Assembly: GCA_000182565.2 (NCBI GenBank)
Contig: KQ257452.1
Origin: Spizellomyces punctatus DAOM BR117
Taxonomy: Eukaryota
Reading direction: 5' to 3' (one strand)
Length of the DNA stretch: 64,000 nt
The notes under the pieces are model-generated. The model did not search any database, had not been told where the DNA came from, and saw nothing but the letters and a program-made list of their open reading frames with translations. This document shows, piece after piece, positions 8,121-53,718 of this stretch. The translations under genes and the position numbers were made by a program. Each line of letters opens with the position of its first letter. Positions within the stretch are counted from its first letter, which is position 1.

Positions 8121-9628
8121 CTAATCTGTGCTCTCCGCTCGAATCTTCTCCACCATCTGCCTCATTAGATCGGTGGCTTTTGTGATATTCTTTCTCTCCA
8201 TCGCAGAAATCGGCACGATGGGCACATTCGTCTTACACTTGAGAATTTCCAAGTTATCCTTGGCAATCTTGCCCATGTCCGCTTTGTTTGCCACGATCAA
8301 GCTCGGCTTGTTGGTCAAACCAGGTTTGTATGCCTCTAATTCACGCATCAGTACTTCAAAATCTCGCCATGGCGCTTTCCCTGCAAGATCAATCACGTAT
8401 ACGAGCATTCGATTTCTCTCTACGTGGCGCAAGAACCGGTGTCCTATGCCGACATTCCGATGTGCACCTTCAATGAGCCCGGGAATGTCAGCTATGGTCA
8501 TCGTCCAGAAATCCGGAAAGTCAATGGTGCCAACATAAGGATTGAGAGTAGTGAAAGGATAGGGTGCTATACGAGGATGTGCGTTCGACACAGCGGCTAG
8601 AAACGTCGACTTTCCGGCGTTCGGTAAGCCCACAAGACCAGCGTCTGCGATTGTTTTCAACTCCAATTCCAGCCAGAGAGTCGTCCCTGGCCTCCCTTTG
8701 CCTGCTAACGCTGGGCCCCTTATTTCAGATGAGAGAAAATGAGGGTTTCCTTGCCCTCCCTTTCCGCCCTGCGCTACGAGATGTCGTTCCCCGTCGCTTG
8801 TAAGATCAAAATCCACAAATTGGCCTGTTGTGCTCTGCTCGTACGGTATACGCTCTAAAAGCATTTGCATGCGATCTTCTTGTGGAGTATAACCTGAGCG
8901 AAATTTGTAGAATTTACTTATCAACTCCATATTTTCGATTTTGATGTCTTCCTCAGATCTTGCTTCATCTTCAAATGCATTCATATCGTTTTCATTCCCT
9001 TCCTCTGCATCATCCGTCGTAGAGTCCTTTCGTTCGTGCGGTTCGAATTGCCTCACTTGGGTTCCCACCGGTACAACAATTTCGGTATCCTTGCCATCGG
9101 CCCCATGCATCTGCTTTCCTTGTCCAGGTCCTCCATCCGGCGCCGCATAACGATTTTGCACCCCATTTAATGAAGTGATTTCTTTTGAAGCAACTATGAA
9201 CACGTTTCCTCCACGACCACCATTTCCTCCGCTTGGGGGACCGAACGGATTTCGACTACTTTTGAAGAATGTGATTGCCCCGTCGCCGCCTTTCCCAGCC
9301 GTCACTTTGACGCGTTTGAAGTCAACAAAGGGTTGTCCCTTGCGAACGAGCAAAAGGAACTCAGTTAGGCTTTGAATTGACTCTGGCAGAGAACCGCGCA
9401 AGGCACCTTTCCCAGAAACTTGCGATGCACAGAGCGCCGTACGACGGAATCCACTGTGGATATGCTACCGCTCTCCGAACTGAAGCGAGGGCTTCCCTCT
9501 GATTCCCCGCTTGAACTGCTTTGTAACCGTCGTGAGTTCAAATTTGATAATAACCAAAGCGGTCGTAGCTGAGCGGACACAGTTGTCCGGCTGCAGGTGC
9601 ATATCTGGCGGAATGCTCCCGTCCGCAT
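8121..9628 (-). CDS. MTG2: Mitochondrial Obg-family GTPase (MTG2/GTPBP5), 2 exons
   Basis: Arg/Ser-rich presequence, Obg Gly-rich domain (FVDFKRVKVTAGKGGDG), G1 GLPNAGKS, G2 YPFTTL, G3 DIPG, G4 NKAD. Confidence 0.92.
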
Positions 9629-9758
9629 TGCTCAGATCTATGGTGTGGAAAGTCGACCAAGAACCCCGCGCTTATTACAAGATCGGCGAAAATGAGGCGC
9701 AGTCAAAGGACCAGCCTTTCGCGACCTTCCGTGACATCCTGCCTTGCTTACCATTCCC

Positions 9759-10283
9759 ATGTCTGCAACCAACAACGATGCTGAACGAAGCGCCTTCATA
9801 ACAGTCGGCACCACACGGTTTGATGCTCTAGTTGAAACGGTATCTACACTAGAGTTCCTGAATGCGGTACACCGGAATGGTTTTACGCGCCTCACAATCC
9901 AACACGGGAGAAGCCCAATCCCATTGATACCACCTGGCTCACCCATTCGAGTAATAACATACGACTTCAAACCAGATCTAAATGCGGATTATCAATCTGC
10001 TGCCTTGGTCATTTCACATGCCGGAGCAGGTTCGATCCTCGAAGGACTAGCACTGGGAAAGCCGTTGCTGGTGGTCGTTAACAGAGGTCTCATGGACAAC
10101 CACCAACTAGAATTGGCAACTGCTATGGCAAGGCAGGGGGTCTTGATATGGACGGACGTAGAGAATTTAACGACCTCCATTGACAAGGGCGGGTGGGAGA
10201 ACTTGCACCGCCTTGAGGAGAGCGATCCAACCATCTTTATTGACATCTTGAAAGAAGAGGCTGGATTTCCCTTGAAAAGATGA
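9759..10283 (+). CDS. ALG13: UDP-GlcNAc transferase subunit ALG13 (GT28 C-terminal domain)
   Basis: FITVGTTRFDALV; LVISHAGAGSILE; LLVVVNRGLMDNHQLELA. Single exon. Confidence 0.93.
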   Translation: MSATNNDAERSAFITVGTTRFDALVETVSTLEFLNAVHRNGFTRLTIQHGRSPIPLIPPGSPIRVITYDFKPDLNADYQSAALVISHAGAGSILEGLALGKPLLVVVNRGLMDNHQLELATAMARQGVLIWTDVENLTTSIDKGGWENLHRLEESDPTIFIDILKEEAGFPLKR

Positions 10284-10333: not shown

Positions 10334-11458
<1,125 letters not shown>

Positions 11459-11668
11459 ACGGTGGTGTCTGGAAAAGAAAGTTGGTGAGTTGGGTGGGTT
11501 GGACGCGATCACCTCATGTCGACGGCCATCGAACGATCGCGTGGGTGGCGCAGCAGCAAAGAAGGCCAACTAGTAAGGCCAAGACCACTGGAAAAGACCT
11601 TTTTGAAAACGAGGATTGGCTATGTACAAATATCCTACTAGACATAAATAAATAAATGCAGTGCATAT

Positions 11669-13525
11669 CTATCCCATAGACTTTCTCCCAAAATGCAGCA
11701 AAGCTGCTTCCATGAACGCGTTTAAATCACCATCCAGGACTTTATCAACATCCCCTCGCTCATACCCTGTTCGTACGTCTTTAATCATCTTATAAGGATG
11801 AAGCACGTAAGATCGAATTTGGGAACCCCATGCATTGTCCGCAAGCTCGGCACGCTGGTCTGCCTTTGCTTGCATCCTAAGACGAAAGTATACATATATC
11901 AGTTAAATGCCCTCAATGATGTCGCGCCCTCCTGACCATACTTTGCCCGCAGCTCTCGTTCATAAAGCTTGGCTTGAAGCATCTGAAGAGCAACTGCCCT
12001 ATTTTGATGTTGTGATCGCTGTGACTGACACTGTATACACGTATATGCAAGTGAGGGTTTGTTGCCGTGGATGAAACATGGTGTCGACCAATAGCTTACC
12101 GTAACCATAATTCCAGTTGGGAGATGTACGATTCGTACCGCACTTTCCGTTGTATTCACGTGCTGCCCTCCAGCACCTTGTGCTCTCATAACATCGATCT
12201 TGATGTCGCCAGGAGGAATTTCAATGCTTCGCGCGTCGGAAGCACCGTTCGACTCGAAGGCGGGATAGACTTGAACTGACACAAAGGACGTATGTCGCTT
12301 ATTCTACCAGCAACACACCCATGTTAGAGAGCTAAAAGGCACTGCCTGTGACAGGGTACATACATTTGCGTCAAACGGAGACATTCGCACGAAACGATGT
12401 ACACCTGCTTCATGCTTGCACCACCCATAAGCGTATTCCCCATTTATTTGCAATGTGGCCGACTTTAAACCGGCAACTTCTCCTTTTACGTCATCGACTA
12501 CCTTGACTACAAGTTCGATGTAGATATTAGACATTGTGAAAGTCCGTACTTTGCCATCCATCCAACTTTCTCACCATCGTGTGATTGAGAGACGCCCCAG
12601 CGCTCGTACATTCTATGAACACAGAATGTTAAGCTTCCTCGCACCACGAATTGAGCCTTCCAAACAGTATTACCGAGCGAGAATCGACACCCAATCGCAA
12701 GCTTCGGCGCCGCCTGCCCCAGCTCGCAGCTCCAAAAAGCAACCATTCCTATCGGCTTCTTCTGACCTGTATCACAATGGTCAGTAATTCACTCTGATCA
12801 TCAAATTTGTAAATGTAGCCTCACATCATCAAGCGAAGAGAAAACTTTTCCAACTGCTCTCGCAAACTATGCAAATCCGCAGTGATATCGTCACACAGAG
12901 CCGGGTCTTGTTCCTCCTGCGCAAGCTCTGCAGATAGGATATATTGATTGAGCGTATGATTTATACTACAAGGACTCCACAGACATTTACCAAGCAGGTC
13001 CGTAATTTCATCATGCTTCGCCAAGTAAGAATCGTACTCGTTCAACGCATCTTCCAGCTGTGATAGACGTTTCTGATACACGATAGCTTTATCCGCATCA
13101 TCCTGCCACAATGTATCCGACTATAGAATATGACAGTGTTAATCGCAGTCAGATATTGATCTTTGAAGAAAGTAGGATATACAAACCTGAACTTTATCTA
13201 AGAGATCGGTTCTCTCGGCTCGCATACCCGCCCAGTTGTTTCGACCTTCCACCAGCGTCAAGAGACGAGATACCTCAGCACGGTCAGGAGTAATCGAGAA
13301 GAGTATGTCCTTTTTATGGCGGGGAGCTTCTGATGCTAAACTCCGACAGCTTTGGCAAATAAACGGTGCATATCGGGGTATCACGGCTGCCGGGAATGGC
13401 ATGTTCCCGCTTCTACTCGACCTATTCGACCCATTACATGATGCTACTGCCAACTGTCTAAATGTAAAAGAAGCTCTAGCCGGTTTCAAGGTCCGAGAGA
13501 CCTGCGGCAGGGTCAAGCGGGGCAT
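11669..13525 (-). CDS. prfB: Bacterial-type peptide chain release factor 2 with N-terminal mitochondrial presequence (mtRF2), multi-exon
   Basis: [48 protein letters not shown] (SPF at 12373-12381); [16 protein letters not shown] (GGQ at 12163-12171); [13 protein letters not shown]2-type end [22 protein letters not shown]...VLDGDL. Confidence 0.92.
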
Positions 13526-14950
13526 CTCCGTAAAGCGTTGGCAAAATGCTGGAGACGCTCGTTCAAGACCGTTGATCGTGACGTAAGAGAATGTAGCCAA
13601 TAGATGCTCGAGGCGCAGGGTGCTTTGATTTTTCGGCCTTATAAAAGCAGCCTTCTTCGTCTCGTCAACAGCTCACAAGTCTTCAACTTTCCAAGGTGAG
13701 CTCTTATTTGAATTCTTTTGACCAACATGGGATGAGAGAGCGGGTGACGAATCAGAATCACCGATGCTTTGTGAGGAAAGAAATACTGCCAATGCACCAC
13801 CAACCGACGCTTTCCTATCCCATTTGGCTTCAGTTCTTGAGGCGCTATCTGTTGTAATACGCTAACCACTTCATGTCTCTTGTGACTTTGGTTCAGGTTT
13901 CTGCGAATATGCCAAGCAGGTGCGCTTCGGTTTTGAACCGCACTTCTTTGCATTGTCGTGGACATACTTGATTGTCTCGGACTGCAAGTTCACGATTTTC
14001 CATGGCGTGGTAAGTTTCTTATGTGTTCTGTATGCGGGCAATGGGAAGTGATGATACGACAAAGTTAATGCCAGTTCTGCTTCTGAAAATAATGAAAGAG
14101 AACTCTTTGCTCGAAACTATCTGATCCTATTTTGCATAATGTAACCTGTTCCGACATTTGGACAGTAGCTTATGGGTCCTTCTTTTACAGATCTGCGATG
14201 CGCAACGAAAAAGTTAGAAAGTCGCTTCTTAGTGGTGAGTTGATGCCCGAGATGAATGTCCTGGGACAGATGATGCTTTTTGTTCATCCGTGTTTCACAT
14301 GATTCTATGAGATTACAACTTCGAACGCTGATGTCTCAGACATGTCAATTTGCTATCTGAAGCTGTGGGCACTAATCATTTTCTCTATGATAGGTGGGGT
14401 TTCGTATCTACCATCATTTGCAGGAGCATCTCCTGGCATCATGTTGTGGTCTCCTTTGACCGACCACACCATCATGCATGTGAATCATGCTCCTGCTTAC
14501 CAGGACAATACCGAAAGGGTGCTGTAGGTATTACAGCACTCAGTATCTGGCACATACTAGTGTGACTCTTATGAAAAGCATGACGTTGTTCACGATTCCT
14601 CGTGCCAAAGATGATCTGTATTCTATTAGAGCATTGCCTTTCGCTGCTCTTAAGGAGTGGTTCTGTGAGGGCGGATGTGTCAAATGAATACGACATGTCC
14701 CAAGTTGATGGTATCATCTGCTGGCCAACGCCGTTAGTTGCAACTGTCAGACGTGCCAAAACATGCCTACTTTCAGACTTTACAGATTACCTAGACGTGA
14801 ACATACTGAAACCAACAATGATCCATTATATTACAAAAGGCATTGCAAACTAATAATATTATACAGAAAATAGTAAAGTGTAACTGCACTAAAAAATGAG
14901 CAACACAAAAGTAAAACGATGAAGAGCCTAGCCGTATCTAGCTACCCCCA

Positions 14951-17798
14951 TTACTGCACTACCTTCTCAAGAAAACTGTCGTAGTTCTTTGCATACACTT
15001 CTTTATTGTGCTTGGCCAACAAGCACACCCTGCGTGAGAGCGATTCTAGCTCACTCTGCACAATGTCCAATCCGTGACTTGCCAAACTCTCCCGTTTGAA
15101 CACCCCCTTCTCCAGTTGATGACGAATGGCAAACTGAATACGGCGACTCAAAAGAGAAAACACTGGGTCACGGTATGAGAGAGTCTTCTCAACCATGCTA
15201 CGGATGAGCGATTCTTGCTCAACCGAGAGCCGCGTAGGCGGACCACTTGGTCGTGAGAGCGAGTCGTTGATCGTAGAGATAACTTGCAGAGAAAGATTAT
15301 CGATCGTGGTTCCCTTGTCGCGGAGGAGAATAAACAGCGTTTGTTTCAACTTTTGGACTGCTGGACGATTGTCGCGCAGCTCTTTGATGGCATTCTTTGA
15401 TAGCATAACCAAAGCCGCCACAATGGTGATCGCCTGACCTTCGTTCTGGAATCCAAATAGACGGTCTGCGTCTAACAACAATGTTTCCGGTAGGGTGGAA
15501 AGCGAGATCGCGGTATTAGAGAAAATAAGGTTCAATAACGCCTCGTTATATGCGTCCTCATAACCAATCCGGTTCTCTGGAGTTTGAATATTTTCGGGGT
15601 TCCGCGCCGCGGTGACAGACTGTAGGGAATTGACTGCCGTTGCAAGCCAGGCAGCCGTACGCTCCAATGTCACCGCACCAGCAATGAGAGCTTCATCAAA
15701 TTTGGTCCGTTCGTATTCCACCGCCTGCTGCTGTAAGATCGGACGCAGGGCTTGGAGGCGATAATTGGCTAAATCCAATTTCATGTCCTCCAATATGTCC
15801 AAAATATGTTCAAATGCAGTGACAATATCCGATGATAGAGCAATGGAGCGGATTGCAGCGTCACGGATAGGAGCGCAAAGCTGGAGCATCTTCTCAGTAA
15901 TGTAGCTCAAACAGCGTAGGAAATCAAAGGCATTATTATCAAGTTGTTGCTTGATGTGCTCAACGTCGAGAACTTCCTTGATATTCTCGGCGAACTTGCC
16001 ATTCTCTGAAACCATTGCCAAAAGAGCCTATCCGGCGGAAAAATGAAACATTAATACGAAAAAATACCATGGTCTGATGCAGATCTGTATGCACTTACAT
16101 CTCTAATCTGCGCAATGAATACTGGAACATGGTGACTGAATTTGCCCTCGATAAAGTCCTGCCGCACCGAATCAAAGAAGGCCTTCTTCGCCAATGTACG
16201 GACTTGCTCCTCCAATTCGCTCCTCTTTACTGGTTTTAACTGGAATTCAGGGTCCATGACGAGTTCGTGTGCCAGCTGGGCATTGCTCAGTTGGTTTCCA
16301 ACACCGAACGCCGATATCTGCGGGTCTGTGTGCTCCATTGACGAGATGGACGACTGGCTAATAGTGCTCGTACCAGCCATGTTCTCTTGTGCCCTAACAA
16401 CGGCCGGTTTAGTCACAACTGGAGGACTGCTGCTTGGGCTGCGACTAGGGCTAACAGAGTCGGTACGCCTCTGCGGAGAGCGGCTTAGGGAAGGAAAAGT
16501 CTGCGGAGAGGTGGAAAGAATATCGGCAGTCGCAGCTGTATCGATACTATCCTCAAAGTCGGCACGGAGGGCATCGCGCTCGGCAGCGAGCCTTTGTAAA
16601 GCAGTCTCTCCAAACTTGGACAATTTGTCGTGCAGCTGTCTTTGATGCTCTGTAATCCGTGGTGCCCATTGCGTATCAGCATCAACTTGATTCTTCACGG
16701 AAAGCCAGAGCCGCTCAAGCTCTATAAAGTGAGCAATCATTCCATCCACAATCTTTCGCGAATCCTGTTCCTTCCAGCTTTGGAACGCATCGTAGTAGCC
16801 GGCCCATGACTTCCAGAAGAGTTCAAGTTGCTGATATCCTCTCCCCGCCTCAAACGCTGCTATCCAAGACTCGAACTCTCGGATCATCGACTGAGCCGTC
16901 TCACTCAATGCCTGACAGAATAGTACGTTAAAATACATTGTTACAACTCTGGCCAAAAGTGTGCATTCCTACTTGCCTCTTCTTCAGGTCCCATTGTCGG
17001 CATCAGCTCTTCAGGGTGAGCGGCAAGCATGTAAGCACTCAAGAAGACTCGGGAAGGATTCTTCCATACAGTAGAGGGATGATTGGTCATTTTGTCTAAT
17101 CGCATCAGGAGCCTTCCAACTGCCTTGATCAGCGACGGAGATTGCATAGTCCGCACGAGTTTTTCAAATGGAGTCTTCAAAGATTTGTCCAATGATACAC
17201 CGAAGCGCAGAAAGTTTCTCACTAAGGGGTCAACTTTCATTCTGCGCCACCATTGTTGGATGCTGATGACAGCATCCGTGGCGACCGTACGTAGGCCGCC
17301 CTCGTCCCATGGCTGAGGTTCAAGCAAGCGCGACCGTGGAATGGTGAGAAGACGCTGACGGCGAAGTGCTGTTATTCTGAGCCGCTCCTCTAGAGCGGCC
17401 CTTCGGGCGGCAGTAAGTTCTGCCAATCGCTCGGATTGTTCGCGAGCGACTCGTTTTGCATGGGCGACGGCTTCCGCACAAGACCGCACCTGGCGCTCCA
17501 GAATGGTACGTCGATTGCGTTCCGCTACCTCTAACGTTTCTGTAATTCGGGACTTTTTGGCGGATTTATCACCATTCTCACGCATGCGCTTTGCCGCACA
17601 GACAGCTCGGACGTGAGAAGTGCGACGACGAAGACGTCGCACTCTGTCCTCAATGAATGCATTGTGACGGGCTACCGCAGAAGCACCTGGTACCGTGCTC
17701 CGACCACGTATGCGGGCTTCGACATGAAAAGGCTTTCCCGCCGGTTGCTTCAAGTTGAGCACGTCAACAACGTAGAATCCAGAATCAGTACGTTCCAT
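14951..17798 (-). CDS. SOK1: T-complex protein 11 (TCP11/SOK1) domain protein, 3 exons
   Basis: RVFLSAYML; NAQLAHELVMDPEFQL; LCAPIRD; MKLDLANYRL..LRP.L...AVEYER; LPETLLLD. Introns 16912-16976 (GC-AG) and about 16030-16098. Confidence 0.85.
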
Positions 17799-51882: not shown

Positions 51883-53718
51883 ATGTCTCGTTGTGCTTCC
51901 GTCGACTGCGTGTCAGCATCCAGCGACCCAACAAAGTCACTGGATAACAGCGGCCAACCAAGAAGTGGCAGCGTGTGGTCCTGGTCTAACGCAATTAGAG
52001 GCATAAAGCGTGGAAGATTACCTATCGTCCTGGTCCTCATTCTGTTCCTTGTTCCTGTCTCCGCCGGAGTAGCGCTTGTGGCATGGGCTCTTACGTATCA
52101 TGCTGCCTTGGTATGTCTACGACTATAGGGAATGTCTCGGTCAGATCGGCATAGAATTTTTTAAACATTTGCTCTTATAGGCGTCTGCATCAACCCTAGC
52201 AGGGTCACTCCAAGCTGGACTCCTTGCAACCATCTCGTCCGATGTGTTGGAGCGGGTACACGCCTGTGAGATATCCACCGAAGTGCATGTCCGCAATTGG
52301 GCGCACGGATCCTATAAAATGGATACATATGCTCTCAAGGAGGAGACGATCATTTTCCATATCAACACTTTACTTCCGAATGAAAACTCTTATATCTCAC
52401 AATATTATATAACATATCCAGAAGGGGAACTCTGGGGTGCGGTAATCTACAAGAATGCGGACGGTAGCAACTTCTATCAAGTAGCAAAATCTTACAGACA
52501 CAATGCGACTTGGTGGTCAATGGATCCCGCAAATATAACCAGTCAAGTTATGTATGCAAACTTTACTGCCGACTATTCGACCCTACCTTGGTTTGAAGTA
52601 CGACCACCAATGCGCTTGATAAACGTTAGCTTTCGGCTGATGTTCCTTCCGGGTATTTTAACAGGCAATCGATCAGAATACTCCCGATTCTGCTGCTTGG
52701 ATGAATGCGACAGTGCTCACAGATGGTGGCATCGCACAAGCGTGGTTGACATTCGGTCGAGCCATTCACAGTCCTACAAAGGTGTTCCTCGGCATGCAAA
52801 ATTGTGACTTGACGCTGGATTTCGTAAGTATGTCATTCAATGAAAGTACAGGGAATATTCCGTACAAAGGGTGGGTCTACGGATTTGAACTCCATCCCAC
52901 GTACGATGTGGTGGTTGGGTCTACCGCAGACGCAAATCTCTTCCACATTGCGAGCGACGGCACGCATGATCGCTTGCTATATCTGAATGAGAANNNNNNN
53001 NNNNNNNNNNNNNNNNNNNNNNNNNNNNNNNNNNNNNNNNNNNNNNNNNNNNNNNNNNNNNNNNNNNNNNNNNNNNNNNNNNNNNNNNNNNNNCATTCTA
53101 CCTGCACTTGCTTCAGGAGTCAAAATGGTTCTCTTTATCAGTATGTCGCCAATCCGCATCGTACTTCAATCCTCCTATCCTTGTCATCTGGAACTTTCGC
53201 GGTGCAAATTCAGGAATTGAGGTCGAGAAATCTCCATTGGGCTATCATTTACTTTGTCAGCAAAGACGAGATACTTGCCGGCCTGCATCAGAGTAATCGC
53301 AAAACCATCGCAACAGTTGTGGGTGTGGTCCTCGCTGGATGCTTTGTTGGAATCGTGTTTTCCTATTTCTTGTCGAAAGCCTTGCAACTGATCACTCGGG
53401 ATTTGCGTCTATTGTCGGAGTTCAAGTTCAAAGAAGTTTTACAAAAAGATTTGAGTAGAGAGTCAGGAATTCGACAACCAACGTATAGCTGGATTACGGA
53501 ACTGTAAGTGGTTATTTGCACATCGCAAACAGCTTTAAAATGACATGCTTTTTGTTTGAAGGTGGCAGATCCAATACGCGTTCCATAAAATGGTCGTGAC
53601 ATTCTCCGACGCAGTTGCTCAAAATAGACGTTTCTCGAATGAGCAGCGGAAAACTGTAATTAGCGAGATTATACGAGAAGCTAGGGTATCTGACACTAGA
53701 GGTCCCGATCGATATTAG
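51883..53718 (+). CDS. Two-TM membrane sensor-like protein (extracytoplasmic Cache/PDC-like region plus HAMP-like linker, no output domain); spans the assembly gap
   Basis: TM1 LPIVLVLILFLVPVSAGVALVAW; extracellular region with several N-x-S/T sites; WAIIYFVSKDEIL; TM2 IATVVGVVLAGCFVGIVFSYFL; HAMP-like SKALQLITRDLRLLSEFKF...SWITEL|WQIQYAFHKM; TAG at 53716-53718. Confidence 0.65.
52994..53093. other. Assembly gap (100 N)
   Basis: Run of exactly 100 N, the usual placeholder for a gap of unknown size. Confidence 0.99.

Follow-up and report, generated by a model that had tools for sequence, protein, structure and literature searches.

The analysed window, a 64,000-nucleotide stretch of contig KQ257452.1 from Spizellomyces punctatus DAOM BR117 (GCA_000182565.2), contains on its minus strand a spliced gene for a peptide chain release factor of the RF2 type. 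The gene is best explained as a canonical, vertically inherited, nuclear-encoded mitochondrial RF2 (mtRF2a), a reading to which a probability of roughly 0.82 was assigned. RF2 reads the stop codons UAA and UGA, and RF1, which has a PxT loop, reads UAA and UAG. The original prediction, made from the sequence, had described the gene as a mitochondrial RF2 encoded in the nucleus of a fungus, and had suggested that its retention could be coupled to the reassignment of UAG in the mitochondrion. The first half of this, a nuclear, spliced and expressed fungal factor of the RF2 type with a presequence-like N-terminus, is supported by the gene model, the transcripts, the profiles and the motifs.

The coding sequence comprises 1347 nucleotides, encoding 448 amino acids and a stop codon, and is interrupted by eight GT..AG introns of 58–69 nucleotides each (Table 1). 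Reading of the frames and checking of each exon boundary showed the coordinates originally given for the spliced gene to be exact, on the minus strand. Also the claim that the exons join without the +1 frameshift of bacterial prfB was borne out, the frame of exon 1 being unbroken across that region. A pseudogene reading was rejected.

Four public sequencing runs were mapped onto positions 11500–13800. A single contig of 1385 nucleotides from run X3 was confined to the exons and skipped all eight introns at the modelled boundaries. Run X3 is recorded as 'DNA?', and its RF2 contig is plainly a spliced transcript. Of the RNA-seq run X22 about 6% was read, giving 165 mapped reads that spanned five of the eight junctions with one or two reads each. 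The depth of X22 was 10–18 across positions 11577–11884, covering the last exon and the 3' untranslated region (UTR), and first mates lay on the minus strand. Three X22 reads carried a loose T-run (plus strand) immediately before position 11600, representing the poly(A) tail of a minus-strand mRNA. Because the X3 contig and the X22 reads follow the modelled splicing, the RF2 gene is real and expressed; it is spliced as modelled, and its transcript is polyadenylated.

Full-length profile and structure comparisons were run on the annotated orthologue of Spizellomyces sp. 'palustris' (P0001), and the window protein was scored by single exons. The joined window protein was identical to P0001 in 388 of 407 positions (95.3%) with 0 gaps, exon 7 being 96% identical. 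On the NCBIfam profile TIGR00020 (prfB) P0001 scored 437.7 bits, above the curated cut-off of 370, and on TIGR00019 (prfA) 250 bits, below the cut-off of 423.25. The single exons of the window gave 69.2 bits on prfB versus 26.3 on prfA (exon 6) and 90.9 versus 72.6 bits (exon 7). The Pfam domains PCRF and RF-1 were detected in P0001 with 167.5 and 138.4 bits, and in the window with 49 bits (PCRF, exon 6) and 69.1 bits (RF-1, exon 7). The solved structures closest to P0001 were bacterial RF2s with about 310 bits, as compared with about 175 bits for bacterial RF1 and 157 for mammalian mtRF1a. Within the 64-kb window no other gene of the release factor family was found, the local RF1 and RF2 profiles matching the exons of this gene only.

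The three motifs named in the original prediction were all recovered: the tripeptide SPF at residues 277–279, GGQ at residues 327–329, and the C-terminal WGSQIRSY at residues 396–403. RHTSF occupies residues 285–289, at the bacterial spacing after SPF. The motif alignment included the window protein, 35 fungal or aphelid RF2s, one stramenopile sequence and six bacterial RF2s. The SPF, RHTSF, GGQ and alpha-5 (GAGGxExxDW) motifs of the window match all six bacterial RF2s, save that two alphaproteobacterial ones have RQTSF. Among the 36 fungal and aphelid rows the tripeptide was SPF in 28, SKF in five, SPL in two and AKF in one, and GGQ was kept in all 36. As judged by these motifs, the window protein is a canonical RF2, expected to read both UAA and UGA.

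The window protein has 113 residues ahead of the alignment anchor, compared with 40–41 in each of the six bacterial RF2s, and is thus about 72 residues longer at its N-terminus. The first 65 residues contain eight arginines and one lysine and no aspartate or glutamate, and the first 40 contain seven basic (K+R) and no acidic (D+E) residues. Exon 1 alone had no match in Pfam or NCBIfam. Ten further fungal orthologues with long N-termini (from Phlyctochytrium, three Geranomyces, Fimicolochytrium, Gaertneriomyces, Batrachochytrium dendrobatidis, Nowakowskiella JEL0407, Rhizoclosmatium and Chytriomyces cf. hyalinus) have 5–10 basic and 0–1 acidic residues among their first 40, and many other database models of the orthologues are N-terminally short and uninformative on targeting. 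In a eukaryote without plastids, the mitoribosome is the one target open to a class I release factor of bacterial type, and the product is therefore probably mitochondrial.

Within the otherwise poorly conserved N-terminal extension, a C-x-x-C-R/G motif was conserved in five proteins (in the window in the region of 13382–13402). It takes the form FICQSCRS in the window and in S. 'palustris', YTCNSCRK in Phlyctochytrium arcticum, FICNHCRH in P0003 and FLCHRCGS in Fimicolochytrium. Such a motif is unusual inside a supposed cleavable presequence.

The search with exon 7 gave 4013 of 4025 candidates at E ≤ 0.001 and that with P0001 scored 8000 of 8000 candidates; the best 120 were examined in each. 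Among the matches listed, RF2 orthologues were present in at least seven chytrid orders, their hosts belonging to Spizellomycetales, Rhizophlyctidales, Rhizophydiales (including both Batrachochytrium species), Chytridiales, Cladochytriales, Polychytrium and Synchytrium. Outside these, the listed matches included Caulochytrium, three Glomeromycotina and the aphelid Amoeboaphelidium. The first named bacteria among the listed P0001 matches were Acetobacteraceae (Rhodopila, 340 bits; 46–48% identity). One match, P0040 of Boothiomyces sp. (1233 amino acids), combines an RF2-type domain with WD40 and many other Pfam families, and is probably a merged gene model.

Two trees were constructed, a quick one of 80 rows and a careful one of 57 rows, with support given as ultrafast bootstrap and the SH-like approximate likelihood ratio test (SH-aLRT). 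Left out of the careful tree were the partial Homolaphlyctis sequence, the broken Terramyces and Irineochytrium sequences, one near-duplicate Geranomyces and most of the rows without names. The named or chytrid-like sequences of fungi and the aphelid, 32 in all, grouped as one clade in the careful tree (95/82), in agreement with the quick tree, and 20 bacterial and bacteria-like rows formed a separate one (99/91). The window sequence and that of S. 'palustris' were sisters at 100/100 among the Spizellomycetales, the window on a branch of 0.016. This placement and the 95.3% identity to P0001 indicate a Spizellomyces, or a species closely related to it, as the host. Rhizophlyctidales, Chytridiales, Cladochytriales, Rhizophydiales, Synchytriales and Glomeromycotina were each recovered with star support, and Spizellomycetales, the order of the window itself, at 83/57 only. 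Nesting in an unrelated bacterial clade had been named with the original prediction as an outcome that would refute it: the window RF2 did not nest in any sampled bacterial clade, and the fungal clade stood separate.

The original prediction did not hold in treating the retention of RF2 as special to the lineage reading UAG as leucine: the orthologues span seven or more chytrid orders and extend to Glomeromycotina, Caulochytrium and the aphelid. Because orthologues occur also in Glomeromycotina and the aphelid, the retention, as reconstructed from these sequences, is ancestral in fungi and due to vertical descent, and not specific to UAG=Leu lineages. A simpler explanation for it is that UGA never turned into a tryptophan codon in these lineages.

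According to the explanation favoured here, the basic and acid-free N-terminal extension would act as a presequence for mitochondrial import. Within the A site of the mitoribosome, the SPF loop together with the RHTS after it would recognise UAA and UGA, and peptidyl-tRNA would be hydrolysed by GGQ as in bacterial RF2. The gene would have been inherited vertically from a fungal ancestor and kept since UGA never became a codon for tryptophan, in line with the co-evolution of RF2 and UGA (Duarte et al. 2012). In chytrid mitochondria using genetic code table 16, one RF2 could serve both remaining stops, which would make RF1 dispensable.

Several points weigh against this explanation. The specificity for UAA and UGA is deduced from motifs alone, the mitochondrial location from N-terminal composition and elimination, and the presumed use of UGA as a stop is taken from the literature. 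There are also two candidate start codons, M1 (MPRLTLPQ...) and M42, of which the latter would shorten the N-terminal extension by 41 residues and leave three arginines among the 23 residues ahead of the first acidic one. M1 is the first ATG downstream of an in-frame stop. P0001 begins at the equivalent of Met42, the X3 contig reaches no further than 13443 on its 5' side, between M1 and M42, and the RNA depth upstream of 13443 is near zero in the portion of X22 read. As to descent, the careful tree contains a single eukaryote from outside the fungal and aphelid rows, Nannochloropsis, whose very long branch falls next to the bacteria (96/75) and not with the fungi. With this single row, the tree did not recover a shared origin of the fungal RF2s and the mtRF2a of other eukaryotes. 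Neither does the tree resolve a sister relation to alphaproteobacteria, the Acetobacteraceae being merely the first named bacterial matches.

In the mitochondria of S. punctatus UAG is read as leucine by tRNA-Leu(CUA) (PMC5304391; UAG=Leu also in PMC6821328). Table 16 has been applied to S. palustris, Powellomyces hirtus, Chytridium confervae and three Synchytrium on the basis of trnL(CTA) (van de Vossenberg et al. 2018, PMC6131824), and the same source uses it for Batrachochytrium. One survey assigns many chytrids to code 16 and most Mucoromycota to code 1 (PMC8672057). The reading of UAG as leucine in mitochondria of the Spizellomyces lineage, on which the original prediction relied, is thus supported by the literature (PMC6821328, PMC5304391, PMC6131824). 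Table 16 leaves UAA and UGA as stops, and because these are exactly the pair of RF2, the picture of UAG reassignment is coherent. A link between RF2 and the reassignment is plausible and unproven; the retention of RF2 is at most a precondition of the change in UAG, not its consequence.

One possibility, which extends the favoured explanation and does not contradict it, is that RF2 is the sole class I terminator in these mitochondria, mtRF1a having been lost or altered in table-16 lineages so that UAG was freed. Stated for the codon itself, chytrid mitochondria with UAG=Leu may terminate with RF2 alone: either mtRF1a or its reading of UAG would have been lost, and tRNA-Leu(CUA) would then have captured UAG. 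Such a coupled loss was considered tentative, at somewhat less than an even chance, and the same caution applies to termination by RF2 alone, which was put rather below the balance of probability. It fits the presence, in every chytrid order sampled, of a canonical RF2 with a predicted specificity for UAA and UGA, as well as the reports of table 16 for Spizellomycetales, Chytridiales and Synchytriales and its use for Batrachochytrium (PMC6131824). A weak further point is that the searches with exon 7 and with an mtRF1a profile had no chytrid RF1 in the named part of their best 120 listed matches, the queries not favouring chytrid RF1. However, Sphaeroplealean algae have reassigned mitochondrial UAG and retained mtRF1a as their only factor (PMC6821328), so that a loss of RF1 cannot simply be assumed. 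The retention of RF2 also in Glomeromycotina and the aphelid speaks against the coupling as well. To our knowledge, no reassignment of UAG has been reported in Glomeromycotina or aphelids. If the coupled loss is true, these chytrids would possess a natural RF1-free translation system, the exact mirror of the case of yeasts and animals, where UGA=Trp followed the loss of RF2, and the loops of Chytridiales (SKF, RQTS) and Synchytrium (SPL) would be later tuning of the sole terminator.

Alternatively, RF2 may have been kept because UGA and UAA are still stops, with a normal or modified mtRF1a coexisting and UAG=Leu unrelated to RF2. This too is possible, its chances falling short of even. It agrees with the presence of RF2 in fungal lineages both with and without a change in UAG (PMC8672057 for the codes) and with the observation that the presence of RF2 tracks the usage of UGA (Duarte et al. 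2012, PMC3472500). Against it, an RF1 reading UAG would be in competition with tRNA-Leu(CUA) wherever UAG stands in frame; moreover, no chytrid RF1 was seen, although the searches cannot show absence.

The search with yeast mtRF1a (P0060) gave 18169 matches at E ≤ 0.001, of which the 150 best representatives, unnamed, were taken. No named chytrid RF1 was obtained from the mtRF1a searches among the best 120 listed, with queries that do not favour chytrid RF1, and its absence cannot be concluded from this. A profile of the fungal mtRF1a clade with an odd loop recovered among its best 120 listed matches named rows of Basidiomycota only, the odd-loop clade being Ustilaginomycotina. An Atlas look-up of P0230 returned broad animal and basidiomycete clusters only.

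In all 16 named mtRF1a sequences of Ustilaginomycotina (e.g. P0252, P0372, P0385, P0398) the loop after PxT reads Q/T/I..(G)K/R-L/M/I-Q-(T/S)-S. This replaces E..GR(I/V)HTS, the changes including E to Q, T or I and H to Q. The E and H positions help to read the stop codon in bacterial RF1. In all six other Basidiomycota checked the mtRF1a loop was canonical.

Altered loops were also observed in RF2s of some relatives of the window. Five Chytridiales (P0018, P0025, P0029, P0031 and P0046), forming a strongly supported clade (100/99), have SKF for SPF, a loop shorter by one residue, and RQTS for RHTS. The RF2 of Irineochytrium reads AKF, in a visibly broken gene model. Both Synchytrium RF2s (P0064 and P0069) have SPL for SPF, and their alpha-5 motif reads ...AE(S/A)GLF where other fungi have ...CDW. 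Of the Chytridiales, Chytridium confervae is reported to use table 16 (PMC6131824), an altered codon-reading loop thus occurring in a lineage with an altered code.

The SKF loops of the five Chytridiales and the SPL loops of the two Synchytrium could suggest that also the window gene is a decayed or re-purposed paralogue which no longer reads stops, comparable to plant mtRF2b/c, ICT1 or C12orf65. This is very improbable, as SPF, RHTSF, GGQ and the alpha-5 motif are unchanged in the window, its branch is short (0.016) and its orthologue scores above the prfB cut-off. Still less credible is a recent transfer or contamination, by which a bacterial prfB would have entered the genome or been assembled into it: the domains are of bacterial type and the identity to Acetobacteraceae RF2 is 46–48%, but eight spliceosomal-type introns are removed in the transcripts, which bear a poly(A) tail, the prfB frameshift is lacking, ordinary eukaryotic genes (Tcp11, NUDIX, Glyco_tran_28_C) flank the gene, and it is nested among Spizellomycetales inside the fungal clade. 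The spliced introns and the placement in the fungal clade refute such an origin, and it was ruled out.

The RF2 gene lies inside a compact run of ordinary eukaryotic genes (Table 1). Eukaryotic members of the Obg family, one of which is encoded downstream of RF2, include assembly factors of the mitoribosome. On the other side, a plus-strand transcript begins near position 13733, as seen in run reads, leaving a spacer of about 200 bp (13526–13733) to the start of RF2. A TATAAAA box is present in the spacer at about 13641. The spacer is probably a shared divergent promoter region.

Table 1. Positions in the 64,000-nucleotide window of the RF2 gene, its parts and other features.
Feature	Position	Strand	Remarks
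RF2 gene, whole coding span	11669..13525	-	9 exons; ATG 13525, stop 11671-11669
Exon 1, residues 1-113; N-terminal extension and start of RF2 N-domain	13187..13525	-	single continuous frame
Exon 2, residues 114-157	12991..13120	-	junctions 13120/13187 and 12927/12991 seen in transcript data
Exon 3, residues 157-191	12825..12927	-	gene model and transcript data
Exon 4, residues 191-222; alpha-5 motif at 12720-12691	12674..12766	-	matched by local RF2 profile
Exon 5, residues 222-235, 38 nt	12575..12612	-	both flanking junctions in X3 contig and X22 reads
Exon 6, residues 235-282; end of PCRF domain, SPF at 12381-12373	12364..12506	-	prfB and PCRF profiles
Exon 7, residues 283-350; RHTSF at 12297-12283, GGQ at 12171-12163	12100..12303	-	prfB and RF-1 profiles
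Exon 8, residues 351-380	11942..12030	-	gene model and transcript data
Exon 9, residues 380-448 and stop; WGSQIRSY at 11830-11807	11669..11876	-	local RF2 profile, 109.9 bits
3' UTR, ~69 nt; poly(A) addition site near 11600	11600..11668	-	X22 RNA reads
Alternative start codon M42 (MPFPAAV...)	13400..13402	-	start in S. 'palustris' model (13402)
Obg-family GTPase, 447-residue frame, GTP1_OBG and MMR_HSR1	8121-9464	-	~2 kb downstream of RF2 gene
Glyco_tran_28_C protein	9735-10283	+	domain match
NUDIX-domain gene	about 10447-11569	-	domain match
Tcp11-domain gene	14951-16968	-	domain match
100-N run, assembly gap	52994-53093		

In the published survey of mitochondrial release factors, mtRF2a is stated to be absent from fungi and to have been lost at the opisthokont root (Duarte et al. 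2012, PMC3472500). The fungal sample in the searchable supplements of that survey consists of Dikarya and Rhizopus oryzae, the entries for the latter being confined to mtRF1a, ICT1 and C12orf65. Spizellomyces and Batrachochytrium are not mentioned in these searchable supplements, and three further files could list more (PMC3472500). Our literature searches found no paper on a mitochondrial RF2 of chytrids or other fungi, nor on an inventory of their mitochondrial RF1. Databases already label some orthologues 'peptide chain release factor 2', e.g. those of B. salamandrivorans and Glomus cerebriforme.

With the mtRF2a of plants, red algae, dictyostelids, oomycetes and Naegleria, as described in the survey, the window gene shares a nuclear location, an N-terminal extension, the PCRF and RF-1 domains, SPF and GGQ, and a host lineage in which mitochondrial UGA is not a tryptophan codon (PMC3472500). 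The difference lies in the distribution: the survey reports none in fungi, whereas here the factor was found in chytrids, Glomeromycotina, Caulochytrium and an aphelid. Compared with bacterial RF2 (prfB; PDB 1gqe_A and 9fy1_8), the orthologue aligns over residues 61–398 at about 310 bits, with agreement in the SPF...RHTSF loop, in GGQ and in the alpha-5 motif. In contrast to the bacterial gene, the chytrid one is split by eight introns, lacks the +1 frameshift, encodes a basic N-terminal extension of about 72 residues and gives a polyadenylated transcript. With mtRF1a, including yeast Mrf1, normally the only factor that terminates mitochondrial translation in fungi and animals, the window protein shares the superfamily, the GGQ domain and, presumably, the compartment. 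They differ in that mtRF1a has PxT and reads UAA and UAG, the orthologue of the window protein scoring 250 bits on prfA versus 437.7 on prfB, and 157 against the mammalian mtRF1a chain. In the Sphaeroplealean green algae UAG is likewise a sense codon in the mitochondrion, a correlate of which is expected in the release factors encoded by the nucleus. These algae keep a modified mtRF1a only and lack mtRF2a (Zihala and Elias 2019, PMC6821328), in contrast to the canonical mtRF2a of the chytrid.

The chytrids make it possible to test the long-standing proposition that a stop codon can be reassigned only after its release factor stops reading that codon, and S. punctatus has reportedly been genetically transformed (PMC7213984). 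In relation to the known systems the gene is a previously unremarked member of a known family, which corrects the published distribution and does not represent a new kind. As orthologues are present in chytrids, Glomeromycotina and the aphelid, mtRF2 survived into Fungi and must have been lost several times within opisthokonts.

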